NCBI GenBank assembly: GCA_964187785.1
Contig: OZ076409.1
Location: forward strand, 35,900,001-35,964,000
Reading direction: 5' to 3'
Length of the DNA: 64,000 nucleotides
From: Amphiscolops sp. MND2022
Taxonomy: Eukaryota
Part shown: positions 1 to 64,000 of the stretch, piece after piece
Layout of the letters: every line of letters begins with the position of its first letter
Position numbering within the stretch: the first letter of the stretch is position 1
Position numbers and translations under genes: made by a program
Notes under the pieces: model-generated
The model's database searches: none
What the model saw: the letters and a program-made list of their open reading frames with translations, nothing else
What the model was told of the DNA's origin: nothing

Positions 1-299
1 TTGTACGCAAAATAGTCACCGAATCTTTTCGGAACTGATCGGATACGAGTACTTTTCTCCCTTTGTGGCACTATTGGAGGCATTCTCTTGTTTTTTGGTT
101 TCGTAACTTTTGTTTGAGGCGTTTTTAATGGAAGCGATTCATTGTTAACTCCCTCTGCATAACTTTTCATTCTTGCTCCGGCATCAGATTCCTTTAAATC
201 GCTTGTGCTCGCAGTAGGCCCTTGTTCGCTTTCGGTACTTTTTTGCCTCTCATCTGGATTGGCTACTCGTTCTCTCTTTCCTAATTTACCTATCTGTTC

Positions 300-3200
300 A
301 ATCTCAACCTCTATTAAGTCGTAATCGATGATCCCAGATTCGTCTGTTTGTTGAGTTTCAGTGTGTTCCTGGGTTCCGCTCATTCTTGTGAAGATTCGCT
401 CCCGCGGTTTGTACTTTTTCATTCGATCGTAATGTACTTTGATTACTTTTCTGGTCTCTTCGTGGCACACACGGAAATTCAGATCGTTGATTATTTCGAG
501 AATTTTGTACGGTCCTCTGTAGAACGAAGTGAACTTCTTTGTTTGTCCCTTCTTTACTGTAGGGAAGAAAATAAGCACTTGTTCACCCACGTGGTAGACA
601 GGGCCATATGCCCGGTAATCATAATACGTTTTCTGTTGTGTTTGTTCTAATTCCATGTGCGATCTCACAAGATAGTGAGCTTTTTGAAGTTCTCTCTTTG
701 TGTTGTAAATAAAATCACTCGGAGTCGGGAATAATTCGGTATGACGTGTCTCGTACATACAATCAATCGGTAATCTCAATGGTGTTCCCATCACAAGATA
801 GTTTGGACTATGTTTAGTGACTGCATGAATTGACGAGCGATATGCCATCATGACCAGTTGCAAATAACAGGTCCAATCGCTCTGGTGATTATCGATGTAT
901 TTCGAAAAGCTTTCTTCAATTGTCCGGTTTGTTCTTTCAATCATCGCATTGCCTTCTGGATGAAAAGGAGTGGTGGATGTCCGTTCAATGCCCAAAACAC
1001 GACACAACTCTGTAAAGAGTTCCGACATAAAATTTGTTCCTTTATCACTATGTAAATTCACGGGACATCCGAATTTCGTGATCCAGTTATCGACTAATGC
1101 TTGTGCGACTGTTTTTGCTTCCTGATTTGCCATGGCAACGGTTTCGAACCATTTACTAAATTGATCACCAATCAACAAAATGTACTTTTGGCCATTGGAT
1201 TCTGGCAAAGGACCCATCACATCTAATGATACCTGCCAAAAAGGATGGCTCGGTTTCCACATTTTTAGACTGTGTCTGTGTTTCTGTGGGGTGCCTTTTC
1301 TCCTCAAGCATTTATCACAGCTTTGAACCCAGCTGTTCACGTCTCGTTTCATCCCAGGCCAAAAGAACCGTACTTGAGCTCTCTGATATGTCTTTTCGAT
1401 TCCGAAATGGCCTGTGCACGGAGACTTGTGCAGCAATGGTAGTCTTTTGGAAATTTGATTCTCCGCAACAATAAGCTGATGTGCCCAACGATCTCCGTCT
1501 TCTAATTTTTTTGTTCTGAAGAGAAGTCCTTGTATCAACGTGAGGTTCTTAAAGTCCACTCAAAACTTCCATAGTTCCCTAGAAGCTCCGTTCATGTTTT
1601 TTCGATCAGGTCTCTGCTTTTCTTCGATCCATTTAGGACTTTCTTTATGTTGTTATCTTCATGCTGTTTCATTTGCATACTATTACGATCTGTATTCTGG
1701 ATTAACATCCATGGGTTCGCAGGATGTTCCTCCATTGTCGTGTTTTCTCTCAGTGCTGCCACATAGACAGTTATCGGATCTTCCTCCTCCGGCAGTACTC
1801 GCGATAAACAATCTGCATGAGGGATGCTTCTACCCGCTTTATGTTTAATTTCGAAGTCAAATTGTCCAAGTTTTTCCAACCAACGTGCAACCATCCCTTC
1901 TGGATCTTTGAAACTGTAGAGCCATACCAAAGCTCTGTGATCAGTAACTATTGAAAATTTTCTACCTAAGAAATAGGTTTTGAAATGATTTGTAAAATGG
2001 ACAACGGCAAAGAGTTCCCTTTTAGTTGCTGAATAGTTTTTTTGGCTTTTATTCAGAGTTTTGCTGGCGTAAGAAATAACTCGATCAATTCCTTCTTGTT
2101 GCTGTGTTAGGACCGCCCCAATTTCCGTTAGTGAAGCATCCGTAGTTAGAGTTCTAATCTCGATTGTTCGGATACCCCAAAATAGGTGCCGACAACAATT
2201 TTCCTTTCAGCTCTTGCAAAGCCTGTTCGCATTTTTTCGTCCACGCGAATTTGTTTTCTTTCTTCAGAAGATTGTACAGAGGTTCTGAAGTCTTTCCGAA
2301 ACCCGGAATAAGTTTTCTATAGAAACCCACCAACCCAAGGACTGCTCTAACTTCTTTCAGACAAGTTGGTGATTTCATTTTCTCAACTGCCTTCACTTTT
2401 TCTTCATCCACCTCAACCCCATTTTCAGAGATGACATGTCCTAAGAAATGTATTCTCTTCTGGAGAAATTTACACTTTGATCCTTTGATTTTTAGTCCAC
2501 TTTTCTAAAATCTGCAACATACCAGTTCCAGTCTTTCCATATGTTCTCCGAAGTTTCTACCAAAAACGATTATGTCATCTAGATAGACCAGGGCAACGTC
2601 GTAGGATAGACCGCTGAACACCAGTTCCATGAGGTTCTGAAAAGCCCCTGGAGCTGATGCTACCCATTGGTAGTCGTTTCCATTTGTATAGACCCATCGG
2701 CGTAATGAAAGCAATGAGGTTTTGACTATCGTCTTTTAATGCCATTTGGAAATACCCGGATGTTAAATCAATGCTCGAAAAAAAAACATGTTTCCTTCTA
2801 GAGAGTCTATTACATCGCTTATTCGAGGTAAGGGCCAACACGTTTTTTCGATCTGTTTGTTTAAACCCCGGTAGTCAACAACCAATCGGAAAGACCCGTC
2901 CTTTTTCGGGACCAATATGCTTGGAGCCGCCCAATCGGATTGAGTTGGTGCAATTAGATCGGCTTCGGCTAATCCTTCAACGATTTTTTTCATTGCTTTC
3001 CGTTTATCAAAACTCGTGTTTCCGTAGGTTCTCCTAAAAGGTTTAGCGTCAGGTTTCAGTTTGATTTGGTGCTCAATCTGATTGTTGAAACCCAAATCAT
3101 TTGAGTGTCTCGAGAAAATTGTCTCGTACTTATTGCATAATGTTCTTACTTGGTGCAGCTGGTCCTTTGACAGATTTTTATTTTCTATATTAACATGTCT

Positions 3201-4010
3201 CTCGAAGCTGAAATCCTCGCGCTTCGTTTTCTCTTCTGTCTGTCGTTGTAATTTTAAAGATTGTTCATCCAACTCCAATGTTTCTAGTGTATCTACCCTA
3301 GTATCCCGATAAGTAACAATATCTTCATTGTGTATGTTCAATAGTCCTACCCAACACGTTCGGTTGTCATCGTTCACTAAGGCATGAGCAACCCATAATC
3401 CTGTCGCTTCTTGGAAGGTTTCGAGGGGGTTTACTATACCTTCTAACTTGGTAGCCTTCGAACCATCCTCGTATCTCAACTCACACTGCACTAGTGTCTC
3501 AGTTCGTGCAGGAATTGCTTGGTTCGACTTGGCTGCCAAAAATGTTGATCCCTCTTTACTAGCATTTGACTTTAGTTCCATGCTTCGGTTTATTTTTCCA
3601 CAGAATAGTTTCTGTTGTTTCGCGTACAGTACACAATCGTTTTGTACCATGAAATCTAATCCCAGTAGGCACGGGAAAAAATCCAATGCCGAGATTAAAA
3701 ATGTGGCCCGAAACTTGGGTGTAAACTTTTCGAGCATAACGATCATTTCAATTTTACCCTTTATCAGTAGAGGCGAGTTTTTTGCCGTGAGTATCTTCCC
3801 GTCATACTCTTCCGTTTTACCACTGAACGTTAATGTTTGCAAATATGACCAGCTGATCAGTGAGATGCTGCTACCACTGTCGACTAAAGCAGTTGTAAGC
3901 TTTCCTTGGAGCAAAAAGGTGGTGTATAAAGCGTGTGTTTTAAGTTGACTCCGTTCAGTCATTCCCAAATTGGCCAAAGTCGATCGAGGCAAATGTGTGG
4001 CCATTTCCAC
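300..4010 (-). pseudogene. pol: Gypsy pol (PR-RT-RH-IN), disrupted
   Basis: ORF pieces 2763-4010, 2575-2841, 2505-2714, 2154-2411 and 1592-1930, plus integrase motifs at about 400-1250. Multiple frameshifts; the 3' end coordinate is approximate. Confidence 0.9.
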
Positions 4011-4021
4011 ATCGGCCTGTT

Positions 4022-5023
4022 TTAGTTTAAAAAAGGACAGTCTTTTTTGAAATGCTGTGAGCTTCCGCAGTTATAGCAATTCCTACACTCTCTCACCCAA
4101 TGACCACGTTGACCGCATCTATGACAACTATCCCCTGCGATACCCGCTCGATCCGATTCTGAAACCCTCTCGCGAGACTGGGATCTGCTTTGTTCACTTT
4201 CCGACCTACCGGGCGTTTGTTGTCTGCCTTTATAACCTCCGCGTCCTCTGCTTCGTCCCCCTCGACTTCGATCTCCCCCGTTTCCGTTTCTATCACTATC
4301 TCTTGAACTACTTCTTCGGTATTGTTTCCTTTCCGGAAAACTGTTGCTGTTGTCATTTCGCGAATCTCGCGAGAGAGAGAGTTTTTCTATCAACTGATTC
4401 CCAGAATTAATCAATCTCTCATTGTTGTCGGGTTGAAGCACAGCGACTCTGCGTTCTTTTTCTTCTTCCTCAACTCTAGTGACGGCTTCAAGGTGCAGAG
4501 CCATTTCTAGTATGCGCTCTATGTTCATTTCAGCGTCTCCAATTGTCTTTCTGAGATCTAGTCTCACTTGACTATTACGGATTCCCTCAAGGAATCCCCT
4601 AACTACCAAGTGATCTCTTATCTCTTTTGATTCACCCGGGTAGACCTTCATCGCTAAACCCTGTAAGTCGCCTAGAAAATCGGTTAATTTCTCCCCCGGG
4701 CTTCTCCCTCCTCGCAAGCCGTCCCCGGAATACCACTGGTTTCTCAGTGTAATGAGGTCTGAAAGCTTTCTTCAACTCGTCATAACTTGCTTTTTGAGCG
4801 TCAGTTAAAGTTCGATAGAAATCAATCATTGGAGACGTAAGGCAAAATAATGCGGCCGATCATCAATTTGTACGTCATTTCCTTCACGAGTTTCTGTTCT
4901 AACCCAGTTCTGGAGGTTAGCTAACAGTTCGAAGTGAGTTATATAACTTTCGATGTCATTGGAGCCAGTGAACGGTTCCGGTAATAATATCTTGGAAGTA
5001 CCCGTAGCCATCGTAGCTATCAA
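4022..5023 (-). pseudogene. gag: Gypsy gag, frameshifted
   Basis: Three ORF pieces (4826-5023, 4632-4829, 4022-4717) with LPEPFTG...YITHFELLA, and knuckles CHRCGQRGHWVREC and CYNCGSSQHFKKDC. Confidence 0.9.
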
Positions 5024-6560: not shown

Positions 6561-7028
6561 AAAACTATAAGTACTTATTTTACTCAAGTTACAAACTCAA
6601 CATTCGCCCGCAAATAGGGGCTTAATTTAGAGGTATATATATAGGTTTCAATATACAGACATCGCGGGAAATTCTTCAAGATGTTGCGGCAAACAGGAAA
6701 TTTTTATGCGTTTTTAGATCCTATTAAATTTCGAAAGTTTATTTTTGGCGTCAGATCTCATTAAGGACTCCCTATAGTGGAGTTGCGAATTTTGTCAAGT
6801 TCCGTCTGTCTACTGGAGTAGTGCCTGCCTTGAGTAATAAGCCTATTGTATTTTCCCTGATTGTTTCCCCACGTTTGCAGACCACGGGATCTATGCCATC
6901 TCAGTGTGGAAAATAAACATTTGGAAATACTGGCGAAATAATGCCATCTTTTGTGGAAGACATAGCATTAAATGGAAAAGCGTTTTTCTAAATGGGTATT
7001 CATTTCATCATGGTTTTCAGTTTCGGAG

Positions 7029-7859
7029 ATGGGGAAATCGTATGAAAATTATATGTCCAAAAAGGATTTCCATCCTACTAATTTGGACAATTTAAAGAGA
7101 AAATGGATGGCAGAACAGAGACACGACGAAGCGAAGAGGAAAGAAGATGAAATGCGAAAGCAATACGAAAAGGAACAAGAAATTTATAACAACAAAGTGT
7201 TGATGGGAAATGAAAAGGCAAAACTTGGCCTCAACTTCATGTATGAACCACCACCTGGTGCTAAAAAAGAAGAGAAAGAAGTCGAAAAAGAGCAAGAGTT
7301 TAAATTCGAATGGCAGAAAGTAGCTCCTCGTGAAAGCTACGTCAAAAATTCAGACTGGGTCCAAGATCAGCCTTTTGGAATCTGCGTCAGGAATGTGAAA
7401 TGTATGAAGTGCAAACAATGGGGTCATATCAACACTGATCGTGAGTGCCCTATGTTCAATAAAAGTCTGGAGTTAACACCAGAAGCAGCTAAAGGTCTCG
7501 ATTCGACGCAGTTACAGACTTTGATGGCCGAGGATGGTTACAAACTGAAGAAATCGGTGACTGGTATGGGACCTGATAGAAACTTCGTGATCGAAGATAA
7601 GAAGTCAGAGCAACAAGAAATGAAGCACCTACTTGCGCAACTGTCTAACAAACAGAAACTTAAATTGTTGAAGAAGTTAGGTCTCGGCGATGGTGCGTCC
7701 AAAAAGGAGAAAAAGTCCAAGAAAGAAAAGAAGCACAAAAAGCAAAAAAGTTCACACAAATCCAAAGACCGGTCCAGGAATCGCTCAAGCAGTGTTTCGC
7801 CTGATAGAAACAACTCGCGTGATAGAAAACGCAAACGGCACGATTCTGATTCAGACTGA
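7029..7859 (+). CDS. CIR1: Corepressor interacting with RBPJ 1 (CIR1) homolog, single coding exon
   Basis: MGKSYENYMSKKDFHP...WMAEQ, GLNFMYEPPPG, FKFEWQK.APRE, DQPFGICVRNVKCMKCKQWGHINTDRECP and a Lys/Ser/Arg-rich tail. Start taken at the internal ATG 7029, just after the TTTTCAG acceptor ending at 7020. Confidence 0.95.
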   Translation: MGKSYENYMSKKDFHPTNLDNLKRKWMAEQRHDEAKRKEDEMRKQYEKEQEIYNNKVLMGNEKAKLGLNFMYEPPPGAKKEEKEVEKEQEFKFEWQKVAPRESYVKNSDWVQDQPFGICVRNVKCMKCKQWGHINTDRECPMFNKSLELTPEAAKGLDSTQLQTLMAEDGYKLKKSVTGMGPDRNFVIEDKKSEQQEMKHLLAQLSNKQKLKLLKKLGLGDGASKKEKKSKKEKKHKKQKSSHKSKDRSRNRSSSVSPDRNNSRDRKRKRHDSDSD

Positions 7860-8955: not shown

Positions 8956-9534
8956 TTTTTTAGTCGGCGCTGCTTTTCTAGTGAAAAGAGCCCGACTATT
9001 ACAGTGGCTAGTTTTTTTCTTTTTTTTTTCGAGACCACAGACCTCATCGTGTATGTACCACTTTTTACAGAAACTACTCAGGCTGAGTCCGGCCAATGCA
9101 AACTTAGTGCAAAGGGTCCCTTTCATTTTACCTTTTTTACGTAACCTACAAAAGCGGACGAGACCAAAGGGTCCCCCCTTTCAATTTTTTTTCGGCACTG
9201 TCCGAATTCTTTTTCGAAATTTTTTTAATGTCTCAAAAGAGTCCCCTCTTCGAGTTTTTTGACAATTTCCAACAGAATGTATGTTAATGAATCCCGAAGG
9301 GTCCCCCTTTTCATTTTTCGGCACTATGCGACATTTTTCGAAAGAAAATAGTACGAAGTCTTTTTCAAAAAAGTTTTTTTTGTTCCCAGTCTCATCGAGC
9401 ATGAAAGGCACACTTTAGGTGTCTCGAAACTGTTTTCAACGCTTTTTCACGAATACGTCCTGGGCATATTTAAAAAACTTTGCGCTTTCTGAGCCTTAGA
9501 TATAGCGCCGATTTTAGACGTTCCCGTCTTGTTT
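8956..9534 (+). mobile_element. Helentron-associated non-autonomous element (HINE/DINE-1-like)
   Basis: 5' TTTTTAGTCGGCGC...CCCGACTA foldback; 3' subterminal inverted repeat GCGCCGA followed by the hairpin AGACGttccCGTCT and TGTTT. T-rich flanks, no TSD. Confidence 0.75.
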
Positions 9535-28866: not shown

Positions 28867-29184
28867 ATTAGCTCTTCCTAATCAGTCATTTATTTCTTTG
28901 TTTGTTGTTTGTTGAGTGATTTTAGAAACGTTTTATAAAGCTGATTCACACTAAACTTTTTATCACTAATTGCGTCACATCGGGGGCTTTGAATTTTTCA
29001 CTGAACGTCTTTCCGAATAGTGAATGGTTCTAACATGGGTTTCTTTTTCAGATATGTGTTGCTCCTACAGAACCATATCAATTTCCAATATCTGGTGCTA
29101 CAAAATTGGGTTCTGTAGTAACTGCTACCGCTGGTCACGGTCGATGTGTTAGAATTGAGGAGCTGCTGGTCGACACTAGAAAAA

Positions 29185-30447
29185 ATGGACAGCCAAAGCT
29201 ATGAGGTATTGGACCTGTCTCTCAGACAGACCATAGAAAAACCCAATGCTGTGTTGGATTTGTCAGTTCCCAAAGATCCTCACATATCTTTCAAGAAGTT
29301 GACGGTCAGAAAATGGATCACTGATAGTTACATATCTCCACATGATATTAATTGTGCAAACATATCTTCTTGTGCTTTGATGGGTAATAAAAGAAGCTAC
29401 TCACCGCTAGTCTCTGCTATCGACGATTCAGATGCAGGTTCATCTGATGTCATAAAAGGGCCCGAGGTCATATCGCAACAGCTTCAGTCGGATGATGTTG
29501 CTTCGTCTCTCTCTTCTATTTCTGATCTTTCATCCGTTTCTTCCATTCTATCTCTTTCTCAGAAGAAACTATCATCTTTCATTCCTTCTTTGCAAAACAT
29601 AGTTGGTGCTATTGGTGACACAGAACCAAAAGATGAACAAGATCAAACCATTGTCAAGAAGAAATTGAGGATAGCCGAAGATGAAGCAGAGAGCTGCCTT
29701 GATGGCAGTCCCCTCACTAAAACACCCCAAAGTCTGTATTTCTGTAAATATTGTCGACAATGGTTCTACTCATCTGAAGCTTTGAATGAACATAAAAAGA
29801 TACATATGAACAGTGACAAGCCTAAAAATTTTGTGTGTAAATATTGTAAAATGGCGTTCAAAGGAGCTGCTGAGTTGAAGATACACGAACGAACACACAC
29901 AGGAGAGAAGCCCTACAGCTGTGACATATGTGGCTTTTGCTTCGCCCAGTCTGGAAACCTCACCCAACACCGCAAGCTGCACCTGGGGTTCAAACCCTTG
30001 GCTTGTGATATCTGTGGAAAGCGATTCATGCGGCAATACGACATGTTACGTCACCGAGACACACACACTGGTTACAGGCCTTACAAATGCGAAATATGTA
30101 ACAAAACCTTCGTGAGAGCTGGACATCTCACGCTTCACAAACGAAACCACTTCGATGAGAAGAAATTCGATTGCTGCGAATGTGGAGAAAAGTTTGTGCA
30201 GTTGAGCCAACTGACGGAGCACAAGAAAAGCCACCTGGATAAGTCTTCCAACTATTGCCAAGAATGCAATCTGTCATTCAGCTGTTCTAACGAGCAGCAC
30301 GAACACCTGAACACATTCCACGTTGCCAACTTTTTGCCTTTCGCTTGCGATTTCTGTGACAAGAGATACAAACATAGTCGTGCCTTAGAAAAACACAGAA
30401 AAACTCACCAAATACCACCCGTTGAAAATATTACCTGCCTAGTTTAG
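29185..30447 (+). CDS. C2H2 zinc-finger transcription factor (8 fingers) with two VLDLS CtBP-type motifs
   Basis: Eight C-x2-C-x12-H-x3/4-H repeats with TGEKP/TGYRP linkers; N-terminal EVLDLS and AVLDLS. First ATG at 29185. Confidence 0.92.
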   Translation: MDSQSYEVLDLSLRQTIEKPNAVLDLSVPKDPHISFKKLTVRKWITDSYISPHDINCANISSCALMGNKRSYSPLVSAIDDSDAGSSDVIKGPEVISQQLQSDDVASSLSSISDLSSVSSILSLSQKKLSSFIPSLQNIVGAIGDTEPKDEQDQTIVKKKLRIAEDEAESCLDGSPLTKTPQSLYFCKYCRQWFYSSEALNEHKKIHMNSDKPKNFVCKYCKMAFKGAAELKIHERTHTGEKPYSCDICGFCFAQSGNLTQHRKLHLGFKPLACDICGKRFMRQYDMLRHRDTHTGYRPYKCEICNKTFVRAGHLTLHKRNHFDEKKFDCCECGEKFVQLSQLTEHKKSHLDKSSNYCQECNLSFSCSNEQHEHLNTFHVANFLPFACDFCDKRYKHSRALEKHRKTHQIPPVENITCLV

Positions 30448-31859
30448 TTGTTTTAAGTTAAAAGTTTATCTTGAAATGCGTGAAATTTGCATTTATCAAA
30501 TTACAAATTTAAATTCTATTTTCATTGTTAAACGTTTTCAATGTTTAGATTATGTAAGGTTGTAGGTACGAGGTAATGCATTACGCCAACAGATAGACAA
30601 TGGAACTATACGCCATTAGGCCGCCAAGAATGGTTATTTTGAGTCGTTGCTATTCAGTCATTGAAACCAGTGGCTTGCTTCGAATAATCACTCTTTCAAC
30701 CCATCAGATAATTGGAGTCTGCTTTTTGACATGGTTAATTTGATTGTCGGCCTAATGCGCGTGTTCCCTGTGTTCAGACGACACATAGGAGCACAATCAG
30801 TTTTTGGTGCCACCAGTTTTGATAACGTCACCATTTTTAGGTGTCAAAATGCCTTCAATTGGCTTTTTAAAATTGAAAAGATGTTGCTCAATTGGACAGT
30901 CGCCCGAAGTGACTGACGAGTTGGGATTTTGATAGTGCGAACAGTCATAGTGTTAATATTTTCCCAGTTGCCCCGTGGGTATTCATTTTAGTTAATCCAG
31001 TTCTTGGAAAGAAGTCAATGTCATTAGAAATCATGCTATGACCGCTCATTCATTTCAGAATTTTTCCAGATACTTCCTAATAATTCGGCTTCAATTGTTA
31101 TATTCTCTTAGCAGCTAGGTGATATGATTTTGAAAAGTGCCTAAATTCTACCATATAGTCAATTTTTCCAGAAACTGTCAAAATGGAAATTTTTGCTGCT
31201 GCGGAAGTATTACTGAGTCACGAAAAGGCTTGTTTTTGAAAATGATTACGGTTATTTGTAGAGCTGTCTTAAAAGACCATCTGAAATAGTCTGATTTTAA
31301 ATGCAAAATAAACTCCGACTGTTCATGGAATTTTCTTCAAAATTGATACCGTTTTACAATCTGGCTATGCCTTTTCCACTTTTTTTATCTCTGAAAAACA
31401 TCGATGACCTGTAGCAATAATTCAGCTGAAGTCTTTATAAGGCGGTTTTTGTAATACATTGAAATGATTTTATTTCTTTGTGACGAACTTGTTAAAATAG
31501 ATTGGGTTTCCAGTGGCTTACCGAAATTAAAATCAAAATGAAATCTGTTTCGTGAAATCTGTTTGGCATTGAAATGTTACTTCCCTGGAAATTCGTTCCA
31601 AACGATTTCGCAAACATTCCTGGATTCATGTTCTTCAAAGTTACTTGAAAGTTTTTCTAGGTGAAAAAATATTGAGCTCTAGAGGATCGATTGTCTTGAA
31701 CTGATGTTATGCAGGTTATTTGCTGATTTTTCATAGCAACTCGATCGAAAGAAGATTTCTGATTCATTTTCAGGAATGCTTCAAGTCGAGTGAGAAACCA
31801 TCCCTCGGCTGATAAAATTTGAAACAAATTGAAATCATCTCTGACAAATTTGGTCACCC

Positions 31860-32693
31860 ATGAAAATGGGCATCGTGTTAAATTTGACAACCAGTCGCCA
31901 CGTGGCTTTGATTTCACGCGTTGCTATTGAACAAACCGGAGTTCGATCTAGAAACGTTCACAGATCAAGATTACTAGCACAATCGGTTCGGCTTCTTGGT
32001 TCGAAGTCATCTCATCCTGAAGCTACAAAAAACATTAAGTTAGATATGAGGCCGTCGAAATCCGAAGCATTAAAGCATTCTTCTGATGAAATTTCTCAGA
32101 AAAGGGGTCACCCAAGTACTTCGAAGAATGAAACAAGTTGCAACGTTGAAATCGAATCTCGGGTGATTTTATATACTGACGGATGTTACAAAGGCAAGTC
32201 AAAAACAGCTGGAATTGGAGTTTTTTCACCTGATCACCCTGAATTAAATATGGTAGAACCTGCTCTTTTTCATCCGTTCACATCACAAAGGGCTGAATTC
32301 GAAGCTGTGATTAGAGCCATCATGAAATGTCGAAGTCTGAAACTTCCAACACTTCGTCTCTGCACAGACTGTGAAAGAATTGTTCGTTTTGTCAATGAAT
32401 ATTATTCCAACCCAACTCTAGTTCTCGCTGTGATTCAGAGAAAGTCTAAGTGCCGTGATAAAGATTTGTTGATAATGCTGGGCAACATGTTGTCTTAGGT
32501 TGATGTTAAATGTGATCACGTACGCTCCGGTTGTCCCGGAAACAGAATGGCTCACAAGAGTGCTCAAAAAGGTGCTTCCAAAAAGCTCGAAATACTGGAT
32601 AATTTGAACGTCGAAAAAATTGCAACCTGCTTTTTAAAACAAGGAGACATTCATTGTTTAATAAAGATAACTCTAGAACGGTTGTTCGAATGA
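31860..32693 (+). pseudogene. RNase H1-like gene with an in-frame TAG at 32496-32498
   Basis: ILYTDGC...AGIGVF, TSQRAEFEA, LCTDC, DKDL; after the TAG the frame continues VDVKCDHV...GNRMAHKSAQKGA to TGA at 32691-32693. AATAAA follows at ~32746. Confidence 0.8.
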
Positions 32694-33025: not shown

Positions 33026-33265
33026 AGTACTTTTAGACATAATGAACAACTTAAGAATTCCCAACGAGGGGGGTGTTAAGGAACGGGCTCACCGGGTGTA
33101 TCGATCTTTTGAAGAGAGCAGAGTCGTGGAACTTCAATTGCGGTCATTAGTTTCGTCTCATCTCATTGAAAGTATTCACAAAAAGTGAGCAATCAAACAC
33201 GCTGATTCATTGAATAATCAAAAGTCACTGAAGTCAATATAGTCATTGATGAAGTTTCATTGACA
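33026..33265 (-). repeat. 3' LTR of BEL element 1 (recognisable part)
   Basis: Near-identical to 38816-39054. Starts TGTCAATG on the minus strand immediately after the purine tract GAAAACGAGGCGGGAA. Confidence 0.9.
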
Positions 33266-36200
33266 TTCCCGCCTCGTTTTCCGGTATAGGAAAACTCATT
33301 CATGTAGATGGAGCACATCTTTTGGGGGTGATGATGATCTTTGTGTTGTGTTTGTTGTCGATTGTTGGGTGTGAGAGTCTTCTATGATGAGGTGATGTGA
33401 CTTAGCAGGTGAGCTGGTTTGTGTGTTTTTCCTTGATGCGTTTTGAGGTAGCAACTCCTGACTTCACCATTTGGACCTCGAATAGCTCGTTCTACCAAAC
33501 CAATTGGCCATTGACCTCTCGGGCTGTTGTTTTGGAGTATCCAGACCACATCTCCTTCTTTCAATTTATCAAAAGTCTTGTACCATTTGACCTCGTTCGT
33601 AGTATTGGTAGGTATTCCTTTAGAAGCCGTCTCCAAAACTGTTCCAAACATTTTCGACACTGCTTCCAAATGCGTTTTGTTTGTTTCGAACTCACTGCTG
33701 CTATTTCGAGTGTTGAAGGTGGTTGTAGAACATGTCCAATTAAAAAATGACTAGGGGTGAGGGCTTCCAAATTCTTGGAGTCTGATGAAACTGGGCTGAG
33801 GGGACGACTGTTGAGGATTCCCTCCACCTGACATGTTACGGTGTGGAAACACTCATCATTGAGTCGTTTTGATCCGACAATACTGTATAAAATTCGCTTG
33901 TTCATTCCTATCAGGCGTTCCCAAACACCACCTTGATGAGGAGTTCCAGGAGGGATGAATCTCCAGTCGATTGAACGAGTACTTAAACGGCGTGCAAGGT
34001 CATGAAGTATGTTCGCTGCTCCCTGAAAATTCGTTCCATTATCGCTGTATATGACTTCTGGGTTCCCTCTCCGGCTGCAAAAACGGTCAATTGCCATGAG
34101 ACACTTTTCAGTGCTTAAATCCGTGACAGGTTCCAAATGAACGGCCCTGACAACTATGCAGGTGACGAGGCAAATGTATCTTTGTATCGGTTTCTTACCA
34201 CTGAATACTTGGTATGGACCGCAATAATCGATACCAACGTTCTTGAAGACTGCTGGTTTTGCAGAAAAGCGAACGCTTGGCAAGTCCGCCATTTTTGGCT
34301 GGCTCGGCAGTTGACGTTGTTGACGGCACGTGTGACAATTGAAGGTTATTTTCTTCAGAACAACTGTGGCTTTGATTATCCAGACTTGCTGCTGTAAAAT
34401 AGAACGTAAATGTTCAACTCCAATGTGTCCTTGTTTTTCGTGCTGGTGTTTGATGAACAGATATACAATAGGATGGCGTGCATCCAAAATGACTGGAGTT
34501 TTCGAGTTTTTTGAAACTGGTGCATTTTGTATCCTGCTCCTTGAACGTAGCGTAATTGCGTCGTCAAGGAATGGGCTGAAGTTGATTATTGAACTTTTTG
34601 GGCTGACACTTCGTCTTTGCTGTAGATCTATTATTTCTTTTGAGAAAACTTCTGACCGCTTCAAAAGAAAGTTTTGTGCTGTTGTGTTGATTTCTGCGGC
34701 TGTCTGCTGAATGTTCTTTATTTTGTTACGAACTACGAAGATGACTCGAGTTGTTGATAAAATTTTTGTCCACGACGAAAATCTTGAATAGTCTATCAAT
34801 CTGGTTTCGGAATGCTATTGCAGTAAAAACTAGTTAAATTCGGTAAAGGCTCTGTGGGAATAGGTATGCTGGTTGGCTGTGTTGGCCAGTGTTCCTCAGT
34901 CAGAAAAAGGAAAGTGGGACCCTTGATCCAAGAAGAATCTTGAATTTTACTGGCCGGCAGTCCTCTAGTTCCTTCGTCTGCGGGGTTTCCTTTTGTCGAA
35001 ACATACCTCCATTCCGTTTTTCGGCTGTGTTCAAGGATTTCGTAAATGCGCTTGGCTATGAACATTTTGTGCTGTTCCTTGTTTCTATTGTATATCCAAC
35101 CCAAAACGCTCGTGCTGTCGCTCCATCGCTCCAGTGTACTGTTTGATCTATTTGTAAAGTTAGTTCTTTGTTAAGTTTTCTTCTGAGACGGCTGGCTTAA
35201 ACAGAAGCTTGAAGTTTCAGCTTGGGTATCGTTTGTTGTTTAATGGGGGATACACGTGTTTTTCCGAGGATGAAAACTATTCTTGTTTTTCCATAAACAT
35301 CTGTGTTTCGTAAATAGGCGGATACTGCTGTTGCTACTTTTGAGGCATCGCAGAAAATGTGAAGTTGGACGTTCCTGTTTAGAGTTGATCCGATGTATCG
35401 TGGAATTTTGAAGTCTGCAAGTTGTGGCATATCTCTCAATGTTCTTGGTAGGGTCTGTTCTGCTGCTTCTAATGGTTTATCCCACATTTGACCATTTTCC
35501 AATTGTCTTGTAGTTGAATCTTCATTGTGATTGTGAAGGTTGGTTTTGAACCAAAGGGGTCGAAAATTTTTGAGATTAGGCTTAAAGTTTTCCGCTGAGT
35601 CCAGACTGTTCCTTCGAAACAATCAAACTTGGGTATCTGTATTCCAATTGAGTCTTCAAAAGGGCTCCATTTGACACCTAGAATTCTTTCAGTGTTTTCG
35701 TGACGAAATTTTCAATCGGTTTTGCTAAAACGATCCTGAGGCAATTTCTGACAAAAGGTAATTTCGTTGCTACACCATTTCGTCAAATTGAAGGAACCTT
35801 TTAGTAGGAGTTGTTTCATGCTGCGTTGCATTGTGAGGACTTGTTCGACGTCATTCAGAGACTTTATGAAGTCATCCATGTAAAAGTCTTCGAATACTGC
35901 TTCTGATGCTGCTGGAAATTCAATCTTGTTGTCTCGGGCAGTTTGTTGTGGTGCATATATTGCGCAAGTTGGTGAGTCTTTCTCTCCAAAAACATGCCTC
36001 TGATACTCGCAAACTTCTTGTTCTTCAAACTCGTTGTTTGTCCAAAGAAAACGAAGGTATCGGCGATCTTGGGCTCGTACACCGACATGCATAAACATGC
36101 CTTTTATGTCGGCCATTAAAAGAACTGGTTTTTCGCGACCTCTCAGAAGGATGCCAAGTAGGCTTCCCAACAAATCGGGTCCTCGAAGGAGTTTATCATT

Positions 36201-38709
36201 TAAGCAAACACTGTTCGATTTTGCTGCGACGTTAGATATTCTTCTGACTTTTCCGGGCTTATTGGGGTTGACTAATCCATAATGAGTAGAATCTGGTATT
36301 GTGAAGTTGGCTGTCGTCTCTCCACAACAAACCTGTTTCGTATCTACCATCAACTTTGTTGCAAGTTTTCTGAAGTAATTCTTGAGCTCTTTCATCTTCT
36401 TGGTTGTCGTTGACGTCAGTTTGACATTGTAGTAGACGTCAGTTCCGTATGTCATCAGTAGACGTCAGTTCCGTATGAGTCTGTTTTCCACCAATTGAGA
36501 ACTGCGTCTTTCAAGTCTTCTTCTCTGCTTTCGCACTGTTGACAGAAGAAACTTTCCATGGACGTTTCTATTGGATGGGGTCCGGCCATGGACCATCCCA
36601 GCTTTGTTTCCACGGCTGTAGGTGCGTTCGGTGGACCTTCTTTGACACTCCTGGCGACTATTGGAGAGTATAGATCGCATCGAATAAGAACTTCAACTTG
36701 AAGATCAGCGAGTGTTGTCAAGGTTATTTCATTTAGATGGGGGTATTTTCTGATGATGTCTGTTGGGTGCTCTTTCAATTTTGGTACCTAGAAATCTTCA
36801 ACTACCAGAATGTTTTGACAATTGAGACGTTCGGAATCGTTAGCATCGGAAATTTGAAATTGGACTGTCTTTGTAGAATGGTTCTTTTGACTATTGAATC
36901 CTCTTATGACCACATCTGAAGTCTCCATGGGTTTTAACTCTAACATTTTTGCCAACTGGGGTGACATGAAGCTGCTAGTGCTCCCACTGTCCATAGTGCA
37001 TAGACAGTTTGCTTTTGTGATAGGCTGTGCACGGTAACCGGCACTACTTGAACCATGGCTGAACAGTTAACTTTTGTTGTGAAGACTTCGGTTTCATCGT
37101 TCGTTCTTGCCTGCTGTTTGTTGAAAAGTTAACCGAGTTGGACTTAGGCGCTGTTTTCTCTCGGTGAAAAAGTGTGTTGTGTCGTTGGTTGCAATTGTTG
37201 ATTCTGCATGTGGATTTTGATAAACAATCTTTCAACAGGTGATTTTGGCTCAAGCAGTTGTAACAAAAACCTAGCGTTTTTACGTTGAAATGTCTTTCTT
37301 CGGAAGACATCTTTTTGAATTTTTCGCATTTGAAAATCTGATGCGAGCCGTCCTTCGAAGGACAAAGAAGTTTCGGGGGTGATTGTCTGTACATTGCAGT
37401 CGTTGTTTTGGAATTCTGAACAAAATGTACCCGATGAGTGGCAGTGTGTTCAACGTTTTGTTGTTCAAGTTGCTCGTATGCTTCGGCTATTGGTTGAAGC
37501 CAGTCACTAAGAGTTGACAGGTTTGGCTGTTCAATTTTTTCTTTAACTAAAAACTGTTGCCACTTCACTGCGTCCGAAAAGGGCAAATTGTCTGTGGCGT
37601 GCTTCAAATTGGTTGTTGAGTATAAATCGGCAGTTAAATTATGAGCTTCGAAAACCCTTATTATCGTCTTGATGAAGGACGAAAATTTGATGTATGTGTC
37701 AGGTCGATTGTGTACAGGGGGGAGGTGCTGTATCAATTTTTGGATCATTGTTCCAACAATCACTGTGGGTCTGCCAAAACGACGTTTCAGCTCGACAAAA
37801 GCTTCTTCGTAATAATTGCCATCACATCCAAAAGATTGTATGACTTCTTTTGCACGGCCTTTGACTAAACCTTGCAAGTATGCAATTTTTTGGCTGCTGC
37901 TCAGGGGGGCTTGTCAAATCATGAACTGAAAGCGACTGTTCCAAATTGATTTTGGGTAGAGCATTCCGGTACAAGTAGAACTGTGAGTCATTCCGTTGTG
38001 AGACACCAATGTTACCAATACTTGGCACTGAAACTGGTATTTCAGGTGCTGCTGATTGATATGCTGAGGAAAAACTGGCTGCGTTGGCACTTGGTAGCGA
38101 AGCTGCATGGACTTCGACATCTGCTGGCCTAGGCTAAAAACCAGTTGGCTGTTGAGAATGATCACCTCTATTGCTGAGTTTAGAATGTGTGGTGTCCGGA
38201 TCGTCAAGAAATTGAACTGGATCCTGACAAGCAGTGGTAGTATATGACTGAAACGTTCCCTGGGTTCCTTGATTTGTACAGTGATCTGCATTCAATGTTG
38301 AATCTCCCGTGAACATTACTTGGAATAGGTTTGGAACTCGCTTACGAGTCTGGCTCAATTCTAGTGCTTTAGCCCTCAATTCATCACTCAATACAAAATA
38401 TAGTCAATTTTAGCACTAAATTGGCATGTTCCGATTCATCTGCATTTGCAACCATTGAGTATGTCAACTCTTCAACTGTTGCTAGTTGTGTAACAACATA
38501 TTTTTGATGTTGCTCAGCGAGATTGAAACTTTTCTGTTCAATACTTGCATGGAATGATTCTATTAACGCGTTGAGTCTACTTGTAGCAGCTGATAGTTTA
38601 GCCCTCGTGACCATTATAGGCACTGGCGCTTTTTGCTTTGAGCCCATTTTGCAGTTATTATTTGAATTGATCAATAGCTCTCGTTTTGTACTGCTCGTAT
38701 ATGACGAAC

Positions 38710-38727
38710 ATCACGTCGGGGTCACCA
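38710..38727 (-). promoter_or_regulatory. Primer binding site, tRNA-Trp
   Basis: TGGTGACCCCGACGTGAT, the 18-nt complement of the metazoan tRNA-Trp 3' end. Confidence 0.9.
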
Positions 38728-38728
38728 A

Positions 38729-39054
38729 TAATTATGCGGGAAAATGATTAAATAGATTTACGAGATGAACAAACTTAAATAATCTTGAGTTATGTTTGGT
38801 ATCATTGAAATTTTAAGTATTTTTAAACATAATGAACAACTTAAGAATTCCCAACGAGGGGGTGCCAAGGAACGGGCTCACCGGGTGTATTGATCTTTTG
38901 AAGAGAGCAGAGTCGTGGAACTTCAATTGCGGTCATTAGTTTCGTCTCATATCATTGAAAGTATTCACAAAAAGTGAGCAATCAAACTCACCGATTCATT
39001 GAATAATCAAAAGTCATTGAAGTCAATATAGTCATTGATGAAGTTTCATTGACA
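38729..39054 (-). repeat. 5' LTR of BEL element 1
   Basis: Starts TGTCAATG at 39054 and runs to just before the PBS. The inner ~90 bp has no clear match in the 3' LTR. Confidence 0.8.
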
Positions 39055-43933: not shown

Positions 43934-44092
43934 ATGAAATTCATTCAAAATGTCTCATGTCTCTTTACTTTTGCAGACCACTAGTGACAGAGTAATGATG
44001 CAGATGTAATGAGTCATTACATCTGCATCATTACTCTGTCACTAGTGGTCTGCAAAAGTAAAGAGACATGAGACATTTTGAATGAATTTCAT
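43934..44092. repeat. Perfect palindrome, 79-bp arms with a 1-nt spacer
   Basis: 43934-44012 is the exact reverse complement of 44014-44092, centred on G44013. Confidence 0.97.
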
Positions 44093-56243: not shown

Positions 56244-57076
56244 TTATTGCTACTCTCTTCGTTTTTTACTGCCAACAGACTGAAATATTTCGCATGAAAC
56301 AATTGGTAAAAGTTGATTGGCGAAAAACTTCAAATTGTTTTTGAAACGTCGCTTGCGTGTTTCATAAATTTATCAGTGAATTCTCTGTTTTCAAAATTGT
56401 AAAATTGGTTCATGCTATTCAACCTTTGATATTGAAAGAATACAAATAAAGCTCGTCAAAATTCTAGGTTGTTTTAGGTGGGAGACACAGCAACTTGTTT
56501 TCCAAAGTCAAAAGTCAATTTATTTACAAATTTGGATGGAAAAGTTTTGTCCTAAAGAAGATTTTGTTCCAACACAAAGGCCTTAAATTTCGGAAGTTAT
56601 CGTTTTAGATTCATATATTTGAGAGAAAGTGTTTGTTTTTCTCCTGAATTAACTTGTTTTTGGGAAATTGATTTTGTCACAGAAAACAGACAGCTTTGAT
56701 AATGTTTTGTTTTCCGATTGCTCCATTCTGAAATGTTGCAGGGATTTAACCCTCATCACGGCAATGACAATGCCACCTGTAGTCCTCTGGCGCTATGATC
56801 TAAATCACGGGACTAATTCACTTGGACATAGGGATCCTGTGGTTTTCATGACCAAAAAGACAATTTTCAATTTTTATTCACTTTTCATTGTAGACGTAGA
56901 CTCACTCAATTTTCTCTCTCACCCAACAATCCTTCCCACTGTTTCTTTTTCCCGAATGCTTTTTCCTTTCAAATCTTGCCAAACAATTGAATATAGTTTA
57001 AAATGCAACAACCAATCAAATACATCTCGACAATCCATCTATTTGCAATGTGATCAATTAGACTCTCAAATAATAA

Positions 57077-57592
57077 AAACAAGCCGGGAACGGCATAAGT
57101 CGGCGCCATATCTAAGGCTCAAAAATAGCAAAAGGACTTCAAAGTGTCAAGTATTCTCTTCTACAGTACACGCATGAGGAAAAAAATTGAAAAAAAAATC
57201 CGAATTTTTTTTTGAAGTCTCCGGTAAGTCGCATAGTCCCGAAAAAATGTAAAACGGGGGCCTTTGAAGTTTTTTAAACATCCATTCTTGTGCAAAATCA
57301 AAAAAAAATTGAAGGGGACCATTTGAAGACATTTAAAAAATTGCGAAAAAAGTCTCACAAAGCCGAAATAACATGCACAAAACAATTGGTCAAGTGTGAG
57401 ACTCGAACCTACGTCCTTCTGCTTGGCAGACCTCAAAAAATCCTAATTTACCTCTATGCACAACTTACATTAGTGTGGCAGTTTAAGGAAGCCAGCTTAT
57501 AAAGCTTATGAAATCTGACACTTCGTTGATCTTAAAAAAAAGAAAAGTCACTGCTACAGTCTGCGTTTTCTACGAAAAGCACCGACTAAAAA
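57077..57592 (-). mobile_element. HINE-like element with tRNA-like cassette
   Basis: AAACAAGCCGGGAACGGCATAAGTCGGCGCCATATCTAAGGCTC at the left end, GCACCGACTAAAAA at the right end, and a B-box GGTTCGAGTC (minus) at ~57401-57410. Confidence 0.8.
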
Positions 57593-60500: not shown

Positions 60501-60874
60501 ACTCGAAAAACGTACTCGAAAGCAATTTCATTCGTCGTTGTACTGTTGGATTATTCCAAGAACCAAAACATCAACAATTTTAAAAATATTGGATGTAAAT
60601 CGTCACAATTTATAAACTTTCGGATATTTTGTTTTTTTTTAGTGTCGTTTGAGTCAGTTTCAATAATCAAAAAATTCCGATTGGGTAAGGAAAATCGTGC
60701 TGGATAGTTGTTTCTTTCGTTGTTCAACTCTTTGTAAACTGTAACTCACGAGAGCAGTCAAAAACTGTACAAAAATATGATTGGAACTGTCAAAAGTTAG
60801 AAAGTATTGAATTTGTACCTAATTTGGGGTCGTTTTGGGGTGGCTTCTGTCTTTCGAATATCTCTACAAATAAA

Positions 60875-62006
60875 TGTTCATTGACATCCAGACAGGATAG
60901 AGGATGAGCTTAAGCAGCTCTTCTAGCCTCTCCCCTTAATATAAATAACATGAAAGGAATTGTTGCGATACAATTGACTTGGGTATAAATTAGGAAGGTA
61001 AACGCGGCACAGTTAGTAAGTTTCCTGGGGCGGAAAATAATGGAAAAACAGTGAGCCATGTTGACTTGATCAGGTCGTTTTGTTGCTTGTGCGTGTTCAC
61101 TTTTGTTCCTTGGTTTGGTCCACTCATTGTAAAAGCTGATTGTTTAAGCTTATCATGATAACTTATTCATACCTCCAGAAATCCTTCAAAGTTTTGGTTT
61201 TAGGGCTGACCTGTTTGTGATTAATTCTTCGAATAACAAAGTCTTTACGCCCGCCCTGATTGTTTCCAGGAACCACAATGACAACGTCCAGAGCACTCGT
61301 AAATTCTTGGATGACCTTGTCGGTCCAATTCAGCGTCAAAAGCACTTCTAAGTATTTTGGTTTTTAGAATAAAACAAATGCTTCCGATGGATTCTTCGTT
61401 CAAATGGACTTTGTCTTCTCTCAAATGAGTGACTTTGTAGACCCTCTTTTCTACTCCTCGAAACGACCAGTCTTCCTTTCGATTAGATAGCAGTTTGTTT
61501 ACTGCACTGGTGCGTTCTCTTTGATTGTGACGAGGAGGAATTCCCAGCACAAACACTTTATCAGCTTTGCCTTTTAAAACGTTAGCAAGGTCACTAATTT
61601 TGTCCGCAACCTCTTCCGAACTAACTTTAGAGGGTGATTTACCTTGGAAAAGATCGTTTCCTCCAACGAAAAGTACTATAATATTGAAGCGACCCACGCG
61701 TGGAATGAAATTATAAACGTCGTGAACTTTCGCACTTTTCTCATACAGTTGGAACAACTTGTCCAATTTAAGAATTCTCTCTTCTCGTTTTCGAAGTTAT
61801 TGATTGTTGTTCGTGTGAAATTTTACATCCGTTTAACATCTCATTAATATTCATTACAACGTCAAATTTATACAATTTTGATTAGATATATATTTGGCTC
61901 AAACATTCTGATTAAACATCGGAATTCCTTCGATTGTTGAATACTTTAAATGCTTGACCGAAAACCATAAGTATTTGATTTGGATTATGATTGTATGGCG
62001 CCAACA
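60875..62006 (-). repeat. Putative 3' LTR of BEL element 2 (~1.13 kb)
   Basis: Begins TGTTGG directly after the purine-rich GGAAAACAGGGCCGGCGA, the same context as the confirmed LTR start of element 1. A candidate end ...TGAACA at 60875 gives TGTT..AACA termini. The second LTR is not in the window. Confidence 0.65.
61245..61796 (-). CDS. SGNH/GDSL hydrolase-like accessory ORF within the putative LTR, probably 5'-damaged
   Basis: IIVLFVGGNDL (block III), KVFVLGIPPR, VNKLL, HLREDKVHLN (block V DxxH), and a C-terminal H-x4-C-x3-C-x-C. No in-frame ATG and no GDS block I visible. Confidence 0.75.
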   Translation of the reverse strand, partial: LRKREERILKLDKLFQLYEKSAKVHDVYNFIPRVGRFNIIVLFVGGNDLFQGKSPSKVSSEEVADKISDLANVLKGKADKVFVLGIPPRHNQRERTSAVNKLLSNRKEDWSFRGVEKRVYKVTHLREDKVHLNEESIGSICFILKTKILRSAFDAELDRQGHPRIYECSGRCHCGSWKQSGRA

Positions 62007-64000
62007 TCGCCGGCCCTGTTTTCCATAGGAAAACACTCTTCTTTGAAAACTGGCGCCAACTTCACCACAGGTCGTTTACACTGTCCAGTAGCTGTTTTGA
62101 TTAGAGCAGATCTCACAAAGCCATCTCATCCAGGATAGACTTCTATAATTCGAGCCGTTTGGTAGTGAGATCTTTTCATGTTATCTTCCACTAACCACAC
62201 AAGATCACCAGAGGATATATTTTTCTCTTGTTTCGAATACCATTTACTTCTTGAATGCCATTGTGGTAAATATTCATTTGTCCAACGTTTCCATATCATA
62301 TCGGCATAGGCTTGCGATGATTTGAATATCTTCCTGTGGTTAGCATACAATTCGGCATTAGGAATAAAAGGGACCGCACACGTTTGATCGTCCCAGTAGA
62401 AAATGATTTGGGGTCAGCGCTTCCAGGTCTGATGGATCATCACTCACCGCTGTTAATGGCCTTGCATTAAGTGTTTGCTCGACAAGACACATTGTAGTAA
62501 TGAGAGTTTCATCGGTTAAGGATCGGGAACCCAGAATAGCAAACATAGCTTTCTTGCAGCTCCGTACCAAGCGTTCCCAGACACCTCCAAAATGAGGGGC
62601 ACTGGGAGGGTTGAATTTCCAAATAATTCCTTTCGATGCCAAACTTTCTCCCATTTGACTTTTGTTCCACGAGTCAATATATTCCCGAAGCTCCCTAGCG
62701 GAGCCGACAAAATTTGAGCCATTATCGCTCACTATAGTCTTGGGTTTGCCACGCCTCGATATAAAGCGCACAATTGCTGCCATGCAAGAGTCTGCATCGA
62801 GACTTCTGACAACTTCAATGTGAACCGCACGCGTTGTTAGACAGGTGAAGAGACAACACCATCGCTTCATGGTTCTTCGCAGCATTTTCACTTCAAAGGG
62901 ACCAAAATAGTCTATGCCAGTGTTAGTAAAAGGATGGGCTTGAAAGTCTAATCTTTCAGGAGGTAAATCCGCCATGAAAGGTTGTTTTACTGCAGAGCGG
63001 AATTTTCTGCAGTCCACACAACTACCCTTAATTTTTCTTAATGCGTTACGCAAACCAAGAACACAAAATTCTTGCTGGATCACATTCCGCACATATTCCA
63101 CTCCCTCGTGCAAATTGTCAATATGCGCTTGCAATAACAATAATTTCACCACTGGATGAGTCGAGCACAATAAAATAGGATGTCGTTGATCAAAACTGAG
63201 GTTTTTTGCATACTTCAGTCTTCCTTGAGCCCTGATTAAACCAAAATTGTCAAGAAAAGGCGTGAATTTCTTTAAGTTGCCATCAATTTTACCCTCTGCA
63301 CCTTTTTGTAAGTTTGCAAAAGTTTCCGGGAAAAGCTCCCTTTGAACAAGTTTGATGAGAACTTTTCTCGAATTTTTTAATTCATCGACCGATAAATAAC
63401 TGGTATTCGTCTTACTCCTAAATCTTAAGCAAAACGCAATAACACGTTGAATTTTAGAGAAACTGCTGAATCGATCCCAAGTTATCAAATCTCTTTTCTG
63501 GGTAACGAATATGGATTCCATTTCGCCCATACTCGATGTGACTTCGTCCAAGCCCAGTGAAGTAACAGGCCATTCTTCCATTGGTAGTTTCAACCATGCC
63601 GGCCCTGTTAACCACTCTGACTTCGTGAGATTCTCAAGGGAGATACCTCGAGTGCCAATATCAGCGGGATTCAGTTCCCCTCTAACATGTCGCCACTCGT
63701 CTATTGTTGTACTTTCAAGTATTTCTGAGACTCGATTGGCAACAAAAACGACTTGCTTCTGATGGGCACTTTTCAGCCACTGTAAGACAGTCTCGGAGTC
63801 TGTCCAGTGATAAATACTTTGAAACCTGAGGTCATGCTCTGAACAAATGAGCTTTCGTAGTCGAACTCCATACATTGCCGCTTGAAGTTCCAACCTGGGA
63901 ACCGACAATTGTTTCATGGGAGCAATGCGGCTTTTTCCTAGAATGAACGATACTTCGCTCCCAGTCTTTTGTTGATAACGAATGTATGCAACAATAGCCA

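Follow-up and report, generated by a model that had tools for sequence, protein, structure and literature searches.

The esterase-bearing BEL/Pao element and other features of the window

The window, i.e. the whole stretch of 64,000 nucleotides analysed here (G000:C1:35900001-35964000), ends within a BEL/Pao retrotransposon, which is read on the minus strand and whose 3' LTR contains the remains of an SGNH-esterase-like gene. The 3' LTR occupies positions 61198-62006 (809 bp, minus strand; TGTTGG...CCCTAAAA, ending in ...TAAAA). Searching the genome with window positions 60875-62006 as the query located the 5' LTR, which the original prediction had placed past position 64000, at G000:C1:35968665-35969473; it is identical to the 3' LTR at 808 of 809 positions, the ORF region included, and the full element corresponds to C1:35961198-35969473. 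The 5' LTR covers query bases 1-809 only, i.e. window positions 62006-61198, and the other genomic copies gave no match past query base 809-824 in this search. Positions 60875-61192, which neither the 5' LTR nor the other copies contain, represent host flank outside the LTR. The LTR had initially been taken to end in an AACA at 60875; its true end is the ...TAAAA at 61198, and the AACA is attributable to chance, since the flank contains 8.6 such tetranucleotides per kb on this strand. Likewise, the target site duplication (TSD) is not the ATAAA suggested at 60870-60874 but the 5-bp sequence CCAAA at 61193-61197 (minus strand, read from 61197 to 61193), and the identical five bases precede the 5' LTR.

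The LTR is preceded by the polypurine tract (PPT) region at the end of pol (62007-62023, minus strand, assigned from the sequence) and by the 3' part of a single gag-pol ORF (62007-64000, minus strand; RNase H/Peptidase_A17 and integrase), which continues to G000:C1:35969473. The predicted succession of pol, purine tract and TGTT at 62006 was confirmed, and the same context of purine tract and LTR start is found in all copies with a mapped 3' LTR start, except that the pol frame does not stop at the tract but runs five codons into the LTR. Pfam detected Peptidase_A17 and rve on the minus strand of the window pol, which is broken by a +1 frameshift near 62379 and a stop codon at 62128-62126.

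Wholly inside both LTRs lies a stop-to-stop frame of 183 codons (61796-61245, minus strand), which, as had been noticed from the window alone, is read in the sense direction and encodes GGND (61664-61653), DKVH (61415-61404) and a Cys tail. This frame contains no ATG. Comparison with longer copies revealed a 458-bp deletion (junction at 61735..61736, minus strand), which corresponds to LTR nt 272-729 of these copies and is present in both LTRs of the window element; the deleted segment starts with GT, and the junction has a 2-nt microhomology. The coding sequence proper comprises 61245-61735 (minus strand), i.e. codons ~36-198 of 198 of a 5'-truncated SGNH esterase gene (98% identity over residues 32-198), which keeps block III (GGND), block V (DKVH) and the C-terminal CxxxCxC and lacks the start codon and the block I serine. 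Because the deletion took the real start and block I, the basic, coiled-coil-like N-terminus of the original prediction is an artefact: the first 20 residues of the frame (61796-61736) come from non-coding LTR sequence, which is read across the deletion junction at 61736/61735. The remaining 5' part of the LTR (61736-62006, minus strand) is rich in AUGs and is likely to represent U3. The window copy is a dead, non-functional derivative. An independent deletion in the 5' LTR of another copy (L032) shares its end point with that of the window (LTR nt 727-729), which suggests a hotspot or a cryptic acceptor.

A second BEL/Pao element in the window (33026-39054) is distant (36% integrase identity), has LTRs of ~240 bp and broken frames, and contains no long LTR ORF. 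Based on motif labels, we take the minus-strand sequence at 1-4771 to be a broken Gypsy-type element with a zinc-knuckle gag, protease, RT, RNase H and integrase; the ORFs at 31845-32498 and 29122-30447 presumably encode an RNase H-like and a C2H2 zinc-finger protein, and the uninterrupted 295-aa ORF at 6972-7859 presumably a CWC25-like splicing factor. At 43934-44092, two 79-bp arms separated by 1 nt form a perfect inverted repeat, and a dispersed repeat of ~55 nt, which occurs in both orientations (9479-9533, 16736, 23402, 23775, 24687, 57072-57134 and 59996), also adjoins the 5' LTR of the esterase-bearing BEL element.

The BEL1 family carries the esterase ORF in both LTRs

The family of the window element, which we refer to as BEL1, was retrieved with a 21-base exact pattern yielding 44 LTR matches (21 pairs and two singles), from which 19 pairs and one single were fetched; one copy (L034), the 5' LTR start of which was mis-set in the LTR comparison, was excluded from later counts. 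BEL1 elements have two direct LTRs, a TGG-type primer binding site (PBS) 3' of the 5' LTR and a PPT, and a search for the primer tRNA gene gave no matches. Their LTRs are mostly 1251-1274 bp long (~1266 bp), compared with 809 bp in the window copy, and LTR pairs diverge by 0-2.4% (L034 excluded). Both ends could be mapped in 18 elements; the TSD is an exact 5 bp in 17 of them and 4 bp in L037. In copy L027, a frame of 2225 codons contains Pfam DUF1759, protease, RT, Peptidase_A17, integrase and DUF5641.

The long BEL1 LTR harbors an ORF of 198 aa at nt 623-1219, the stop codon of which lies 46 nt short of the LTR end. Gag-pol, which encodes 2214 aa from its ATG, begins 81 nt past the esterase stop. 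The ORF region is present in both LTRs of all 19 two-LTR copies fetched, i.e. the ORF is doubled at each insertion, as had been proposed. It is complete in 19 of the 37 LTRs scored, including 14 of 20 LTRs in the ten youngest elements.

The LTRs break the TG...CA rule. TG...CA termini are general in the excerpted text of PMC3601003, where BEL/Pao LTRs are not modelled; all BEL1 copies end in AA, as do the related family BEL2 and a family on a metagenome contig (L131, see below), and LTRs of the esterase-free sister family end in TTACA. The three AA-ended families have clean 5-bp TSDs and young copies, which suggests an integrase tolerating a non-canonical U5 end. The last ~12 nt can be aligned with the canonical terminus in the sister family, and we therefore rejected an origin of the AA ending in the insertion itself.

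The LTR-borne protein resembles PAF-AH/TesA-type SGNH hydrolases

Complete copies encode ADS (residues 17-19), PG (35-36), GGND (60-63), DKVH (143-146) and a C-terminal CxxxCxC, which include the SGNH catalytic set S19, G36, N62, D143 and H146 of blocks I, II, III and V, and the predicted pI is 9.6. Pfam matched Lipase_GDSL_2 (E 2.7e-4) and Lipase_GDSL (E 8.1e-4), both under the curated cut-offs; the homologue in another BEL family (BEL3, see below) clears the Lipase_GDSL threshold. By sequence, no significant match was found in the PDB. An AlphaFold2 model based on a 38-sequence alignment (pLDDT 94, pTM 0.90) predicts an alpha/beta/alpha SGNH fold of the PAF-AH/TesA type, and Foldseek returned PAF-AH first (E 3.5e-6, TM 0.58), followed by OatA and TesA (probability 1.00, TM 0.5-0.62), with 89 chains at E<=0.001. 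The SGNH assignment of the original prediction is supported by the modelled structure in this way, while the Pfam profiles fell short of their cut-offs. In the Atlas, the protein scored 0.92 to GDSL clusters; 227 relatives were found among the cluster representatives, and none of the 81 matches or 10 clusters looked up was a named homologue. From these results we conclude that the LTR-borne protein is very probably an SGNH hydrolase.

The esterase is a stand-alone protein of 198 aa, the model of which begins with beta strands, and it is not fused to a coiled coil as in ORF1p of the CR1/L2/RTEX type. Neither the sequence nor the model gave any sign of a signal peptide, a transmembrane segment or a coiled coil. 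The N- and C-terminal strands, a largely conserved His4 and three cysteines suggest a probable Zn site.

The module recurs in other retroelements and is under purifying selection between LTR-borne families

A protein search of the genome yielded 1124 candidates, 150 of which were scored, and hand-picked representatives were fetched. The esterase homologues elsewhere in the genome are 44-56% identical and occupy different positions. In the sister families grouped as BEL2, the esterase lies at the 3' end of LTRs of 1654-1676 bp (4 of 4 pairs, with TSDs), and two solo LTRs (L075 and L082) with TSDs contain an open esterase ORF, as foreseen for an ORF that is left behind in solo LTRs. A further BEL family on a metagenome contig (L131) has the esterase in a 1367-bp LTR. 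In BEL3 (L079/L101; 258-bp LTRs), it follows pol inside the element as an ORF3 and precedes the 3' LTR; in two Gypsy families, it is located between the 5' LTR and gag, and in a CR1/L2-like LINE it precedes a separate PHD ORF1.

The integrase tree joins BEL1 and BEL2 (97/93), and their sister is an esterase-free family with CA-ended LTRs of 920-950 bp. A quickly built esterase tree is mostly unresolved, with BEL1 and BEL2 esterases neither joined nor separated. Among 20 related elements, which were hand-picked and are not a random sample, three belong to the esterase-free sister and 17 are BEL2-type with the ORF deleted; several of the latter are very young. The deletions have at least two breakpoints, and a C-terminal remnant persists in 4 of the 17 copies. 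The simplest history would be a single gain into the LTR, which was followed by several losses. The easy loss of the esterase in young families shows that an element can do without it in cis; a supply in trans by other elements is a possible reason. Seven BEL2-type elements (L111-L115, L126 and L129) have a BEL1-like gag N-terminus (MASGGTID; 40% vs 28%), the rest being ~90% BEL2, which is likely to reflect a gag swap by recombination.

Between LTR-borne subfamilies, dN/dS was 0.075 (dS 0.77) and 0.18 (dS 0.67), which shows purifying selection on the esterase between these families, and the catalytic residues are retained across families that are 50-56% identical. Within BEL1, the 21 shared variants gave a dN/dS of 0.46 (8 S, 13 N), which is not clearly lower than the baseline of about 0.56 from post-insertion LTR differences (22 S, 44 N).

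Esterase ORFs located upstream of the main genes are depleted of AUGs

In young BEL1 copies that keep the start codon, the 675 nt between the starts of esterase and gag contain no ATG in any frame; some older copies have gained an ATG in this interval. We pooled eight ORFs located upstream of gag or ORF1, one copy each, counted AUGs after the start codon and derived the expected counts from dinucleotide shuffles. Three AUGs were found in any frame versus 55.6 expected. The next most depleted triplet of the same eight ORFs reached 0.60 of expectation, and antisense CAT was near its expected count in most upstream-positioned ORFs. In contrast, gag-pol windows of equal length contain 7-17 ATGs, and the esterase in the ORF3 position of BEL3 contains 9-10 AUGs (expected 9.6-10.7) in all three full-length copies.

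The start contexts differ as well: position -3 of the esterase start is a pyrimidine in BEL1, BEL2, L131, the LINE and both Gypsy families, and position -3 of the gag/ORF1 start is a purine in BEL1, BEL2, L131, the LINE and Gypsy 1. An exception is Gypsy 2, in which the first AUG past the esterase stop opens a 46-aa frame and not gag. The leader of esterase-deleted BEL2 copies is still free of AUGs in 15 of 17 cases, and the old esterase start reads TTG/TTA in all 11 copies in which this site was read, probably owing to one event. All three elements of the esterase-free sister have an AUG-free run of 821-878 nt, the beginning of which lies ~400-470 nt within the LTR. The BEL1 LTR contains 12 AUGs upstream of the ORF. 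In L027 (772-798), an 8-codon uORF begins with MRYH, like the esterase start, and ends 9 nt before the esterase ATG.

Expression of the esterase ORF

An AUG-free ORF in combination with a weak and then a strong start context is a signature of leaky scanning in eukaryotic initiation. It implies a transcription start upstream of the esterase ORF, which would hence lie in R or U5. We propose, with a probability of roughly 0.7 based on these sequence features, that the LTR esterase of this clade would be an upstream cistron of gag that is read by leaky scanning. Transcription would start slightly upstream of the ORF (~LTR nt 560-620 in BEL1); the 12 upstream AUGs of the BEL1 LTR count against this proposal in that they make it depend on such a late start. 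The esterase would be the first cistron of an RNA starting in the 5' LTR; a fraction of the ribosomes would initiate at its weak AUG, and the remaining ribosomes would move on through 675 bases devoid of AUGs and reach the strong start of gag-pol, 81 nt past the esterase stop. The deletion of the window copy spans the putative transcription start region and could result from aberrant strand transfer at the microhomology or from cryptic splicing.

Available RNA sequences are contigs from three runs of one seawater metatranscriptome sample, which are mostly 90-95% alike, strandless and possibly derived from DNA; they cover parts of the element, gaps in this cover carry no information, and its RNA start, end, strand and level are beyond their reach. 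R is weakly favoured over U5 for the ORF, because one sense RNA contig holds the presumed U3 and most of the ORF. BEL1 contains no AATAAA. An attempt to map R by recombination breakpoints among copies was abandoned, as recombination is too abundant throughout. In both esterase-bearing Gypsy families (L085:4606-4758; L086:4624-4791), bases following the 5' LTR are complementary to an intra-LTR stretch (14 and 11 nt, respectively), presumably as in self-priming (Tf1) elements. This layout would place the RNA start directly upstream of the esterase ORF.

Translation of both products could also be governed by alternative splicing instead of scanning, with the ORF or its start acting as an optional leader exon. 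In one RNA contig, LTR 154-388 is followed by 696-1002, and the missing segment has GT-AG ends (388|389 GT ... AG 695|696); this joint removes the start codon, and 0.4% of random deletions would have such an appearance. The end of a second RNA joint is no more than 3 nt away from this acceptor. The deletion in the window likewise opens with GT, followed by a pyrimidine tract with TG at its end. In BEL2, the ATG comes immediately after a TAG, a donor-like motif lies ~70 nt upstream, and a GTAAGT...TTGCAG pair is found past the stop. However, the informative contig is a single one from one sample, which may be DNA, the motifs of BEL2 are absent from BEL1, and no splice joint was seen on BEL2 in the RNA contigs. 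Searches of the genome for processed copies or for the predicted spliced junctions gave no matches, as opposed to 294 for the unspliced sequence. Moreover, exon skipping requires neither an AUG-free ORF nor a weak start context. We consider splicing rather unlikely as the principal mode, although it may contribute to expression. The GTAAGT...TTGCAG pair itself is conserved at BEL2 LTR ends (L091:2998-3067 and others), where its halves lie ~30 nt apart before the PBS and the donor side has 294 genomic matches; in Gypsy 1, a 26-nt GT...AG pair follows the esterase stop (L085:5345-5380).

The original prediction had placed the ORF in U3. Such a gene, i.e. an ORF3 that moved into the LTR and is expressed from the 3' LTR via a subgenomic RNA like MMTV sag or HIV nef, would fit the finding that a different BEL family of the genome (L079) has a related esterase as a genuine ORF3 behind pol. 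The motif CGTAAA, a candidate polyA signal that three families have ~50 nt before the end of the LTR, would place the ORF upstream of the polyA site; this position is equally compatible with a long R, and L131 has a different motif. There is no cause for a last cistron to avoid AUGs and the real ORF3 copy does not do so, whereas the AUG-free run of the LTR-borne ORFs extends through the PBS up to the gag start. AUG depletion, start contexts and the ORF3 control point to R/U5 upstream of gag, so that the U3 placement is most likely wrong and a U3 gene very improbable. That the ORF plays no part today, either as a neutral passenger or as a gene in decay, is very unlikely in our view. The within-BEL1 dN/dS, which is indistinguishable from the post-insertion baseline, and the deletions in BEL2, which are of at least two kinds and affect 17 of the 20 hand-picked elements including very young ones, are in line with such a reading, but the dN/dS of 0.075 between LTR-borne subfamilies, the catalytic residues kept across families and the AUG avoidance, which indicates selection on the nucleotide level as well, argue against it.

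Coming back to leaky scanning upstream of gag, we tentatively extend this reading to a portable, AUG-free 'scan-through' cassette, in which R/U5 (about 650-750 nt) would serve as an enzyme gene and which BEL, Gypsy and CR1-type elements of one animal would place before their main genes without disturbing their translation. Such a cassette would also work in trans for elements lacking it, and we give this extended reading as a whole slightly less than an even chance.

Possible function and implications

For the ZfL2-1 esterase, hydrolysis of pNP acetate and binding to anionic liposomes were demonstrated (PMC3905857, in excerpt), and a membrane role has been proposed, as a hypothesis, for rotifer GDSL ORFs (PMC5408684, in excerpt). 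The small basic esterase described here (pI 9.6, probable Zn site) may similarly bind anionic membranes or hydrolyse acyl esters, and may, by analogy with the ZfL2-1 esterase, aid particle assembly or transport; such a membrane- or lipid-linked role is a plausible candidate, to which we give not quite even odds. It is less probable that the protein acts in counter-defence by deacylating a host defence molecule, or as an RNA-binding factor like the Oskar SGNH domain, which is non-catalytic; the remaining probability goes to other roles. Its basic nature, the lack of an apparent signal peptide, transmembrane segment or coiled coil, and its occurrence in BEL, Gypsy and LINE elements combined with ready loss in cis, which fits a trans-acting public good, are in favor of these functions. 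On the other hand, the catalytic residues are conserved, unlike in Oskar, and the characterised retroelement esterase binds liposomes and showed no oligo-A RNA binding (both from the excerpted text of PMC3905857). These alternatives concern function only and are compatible with expression by leaky scanning.

In one genome, a single module occupies four positions and is spread over three retroelement classes, and some young sister families possess it and others do not; the comparison between esterase-bearing and esterase-lacking families is a natural one for addressing the role of the esterase. A full enzyme gene in an LTR, likely in R/U5 and not in U3, would widen the known coding content of LTRs and, if located in R/U5, would imply an unusually long strong-stop DNA or R region. 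Placement in the LTR would seed esterase genes as solo LTRs, and an annotation that masks LTRs would hide such genes. The AUG-depletion signature represents a simple means to infer the translation mode of accessory ORFs.

Comparison with known systems

SGNH esterases recur in LINEs, Penelope-like elements and LTR elements. Coding sequence in R/U5 also has a precedent, as gag of Ty1 begins inside the 5' LTR; Ty1 places only the first gag codons there, and here it would be a complete accessory gene. In full-text literature searches, with subscription papers, supplements and Repbase/Dfam outside the scope, no SGNH gene was found in BEL/Pao elements or within an LTR. The comparisons below rest on excerpts of the cited papers, and excerpts of PMC6431247, PMC7599744 and PMC5718144 were included in the comparison literature.

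The closest parallels in content are the Vesta LTR retrotransposons of bdelloid rotifers, which carry a GDSL/SGNH ORF3 that is common to Athena/Terminon elements (PMC5408684). Both systems have a stand-alone SGNH ORF with intact catalytic residues in only some families of LTR elements, and in both the module is common to unrelated retroelement classes of one host. However, Vesta elements are non-BEL and have an internal ORF3 after pol, whereas the esterase in the BEL lineage of the window is not an internal ORF3 but sits in both LTRs of a BEL/Pao element, before gag and free of AUGs. ORF1p of ZfL2-1 (CR1/L2/RTEX), which was absent among the Foldseek matches listed, shares the SGNH fold, the catalytic set and the position upstream of the RT gene; there, the esterase is fused to a coiled coil and replaces an RNA-binding ORF1, while the esterase described here is a protein of its own, which has 198 aa and a Cys3 motif at the C-terminus and is additional to gag or to the PHD ORF1 of the LINE (PMC3905857).

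With regard to layout, MMTV sag and lentiviral nef are likewise long sense ORFs in both LTRs, but they lie in the 5' part of U3 and encode other kinds of protein than an SGNH enzyme, and, unlike them, the BEL1 ORF stops 46 nt before the LTR's 3' end and is likely read from the 5' LTR (PMC2664473). ORF0 of rice Retrosat2, RIRE3 and RIRE8 is similarly an extra, lineage-restricted ORF before gag-pol; these are plant Gypsy elements, the ORF0 has no assigned function, and placement within the LTR is not described in the excerpted text (PMC3485330). Taken together, the esterase probably acts in the manner of esterase LINEs and of the accessory SGNH ORFs in rotifer Vesta elements, and its layout is that of an LTR-encoded gene, which is neither an ORF3 nor an ORF1p and is probably not located in U3.
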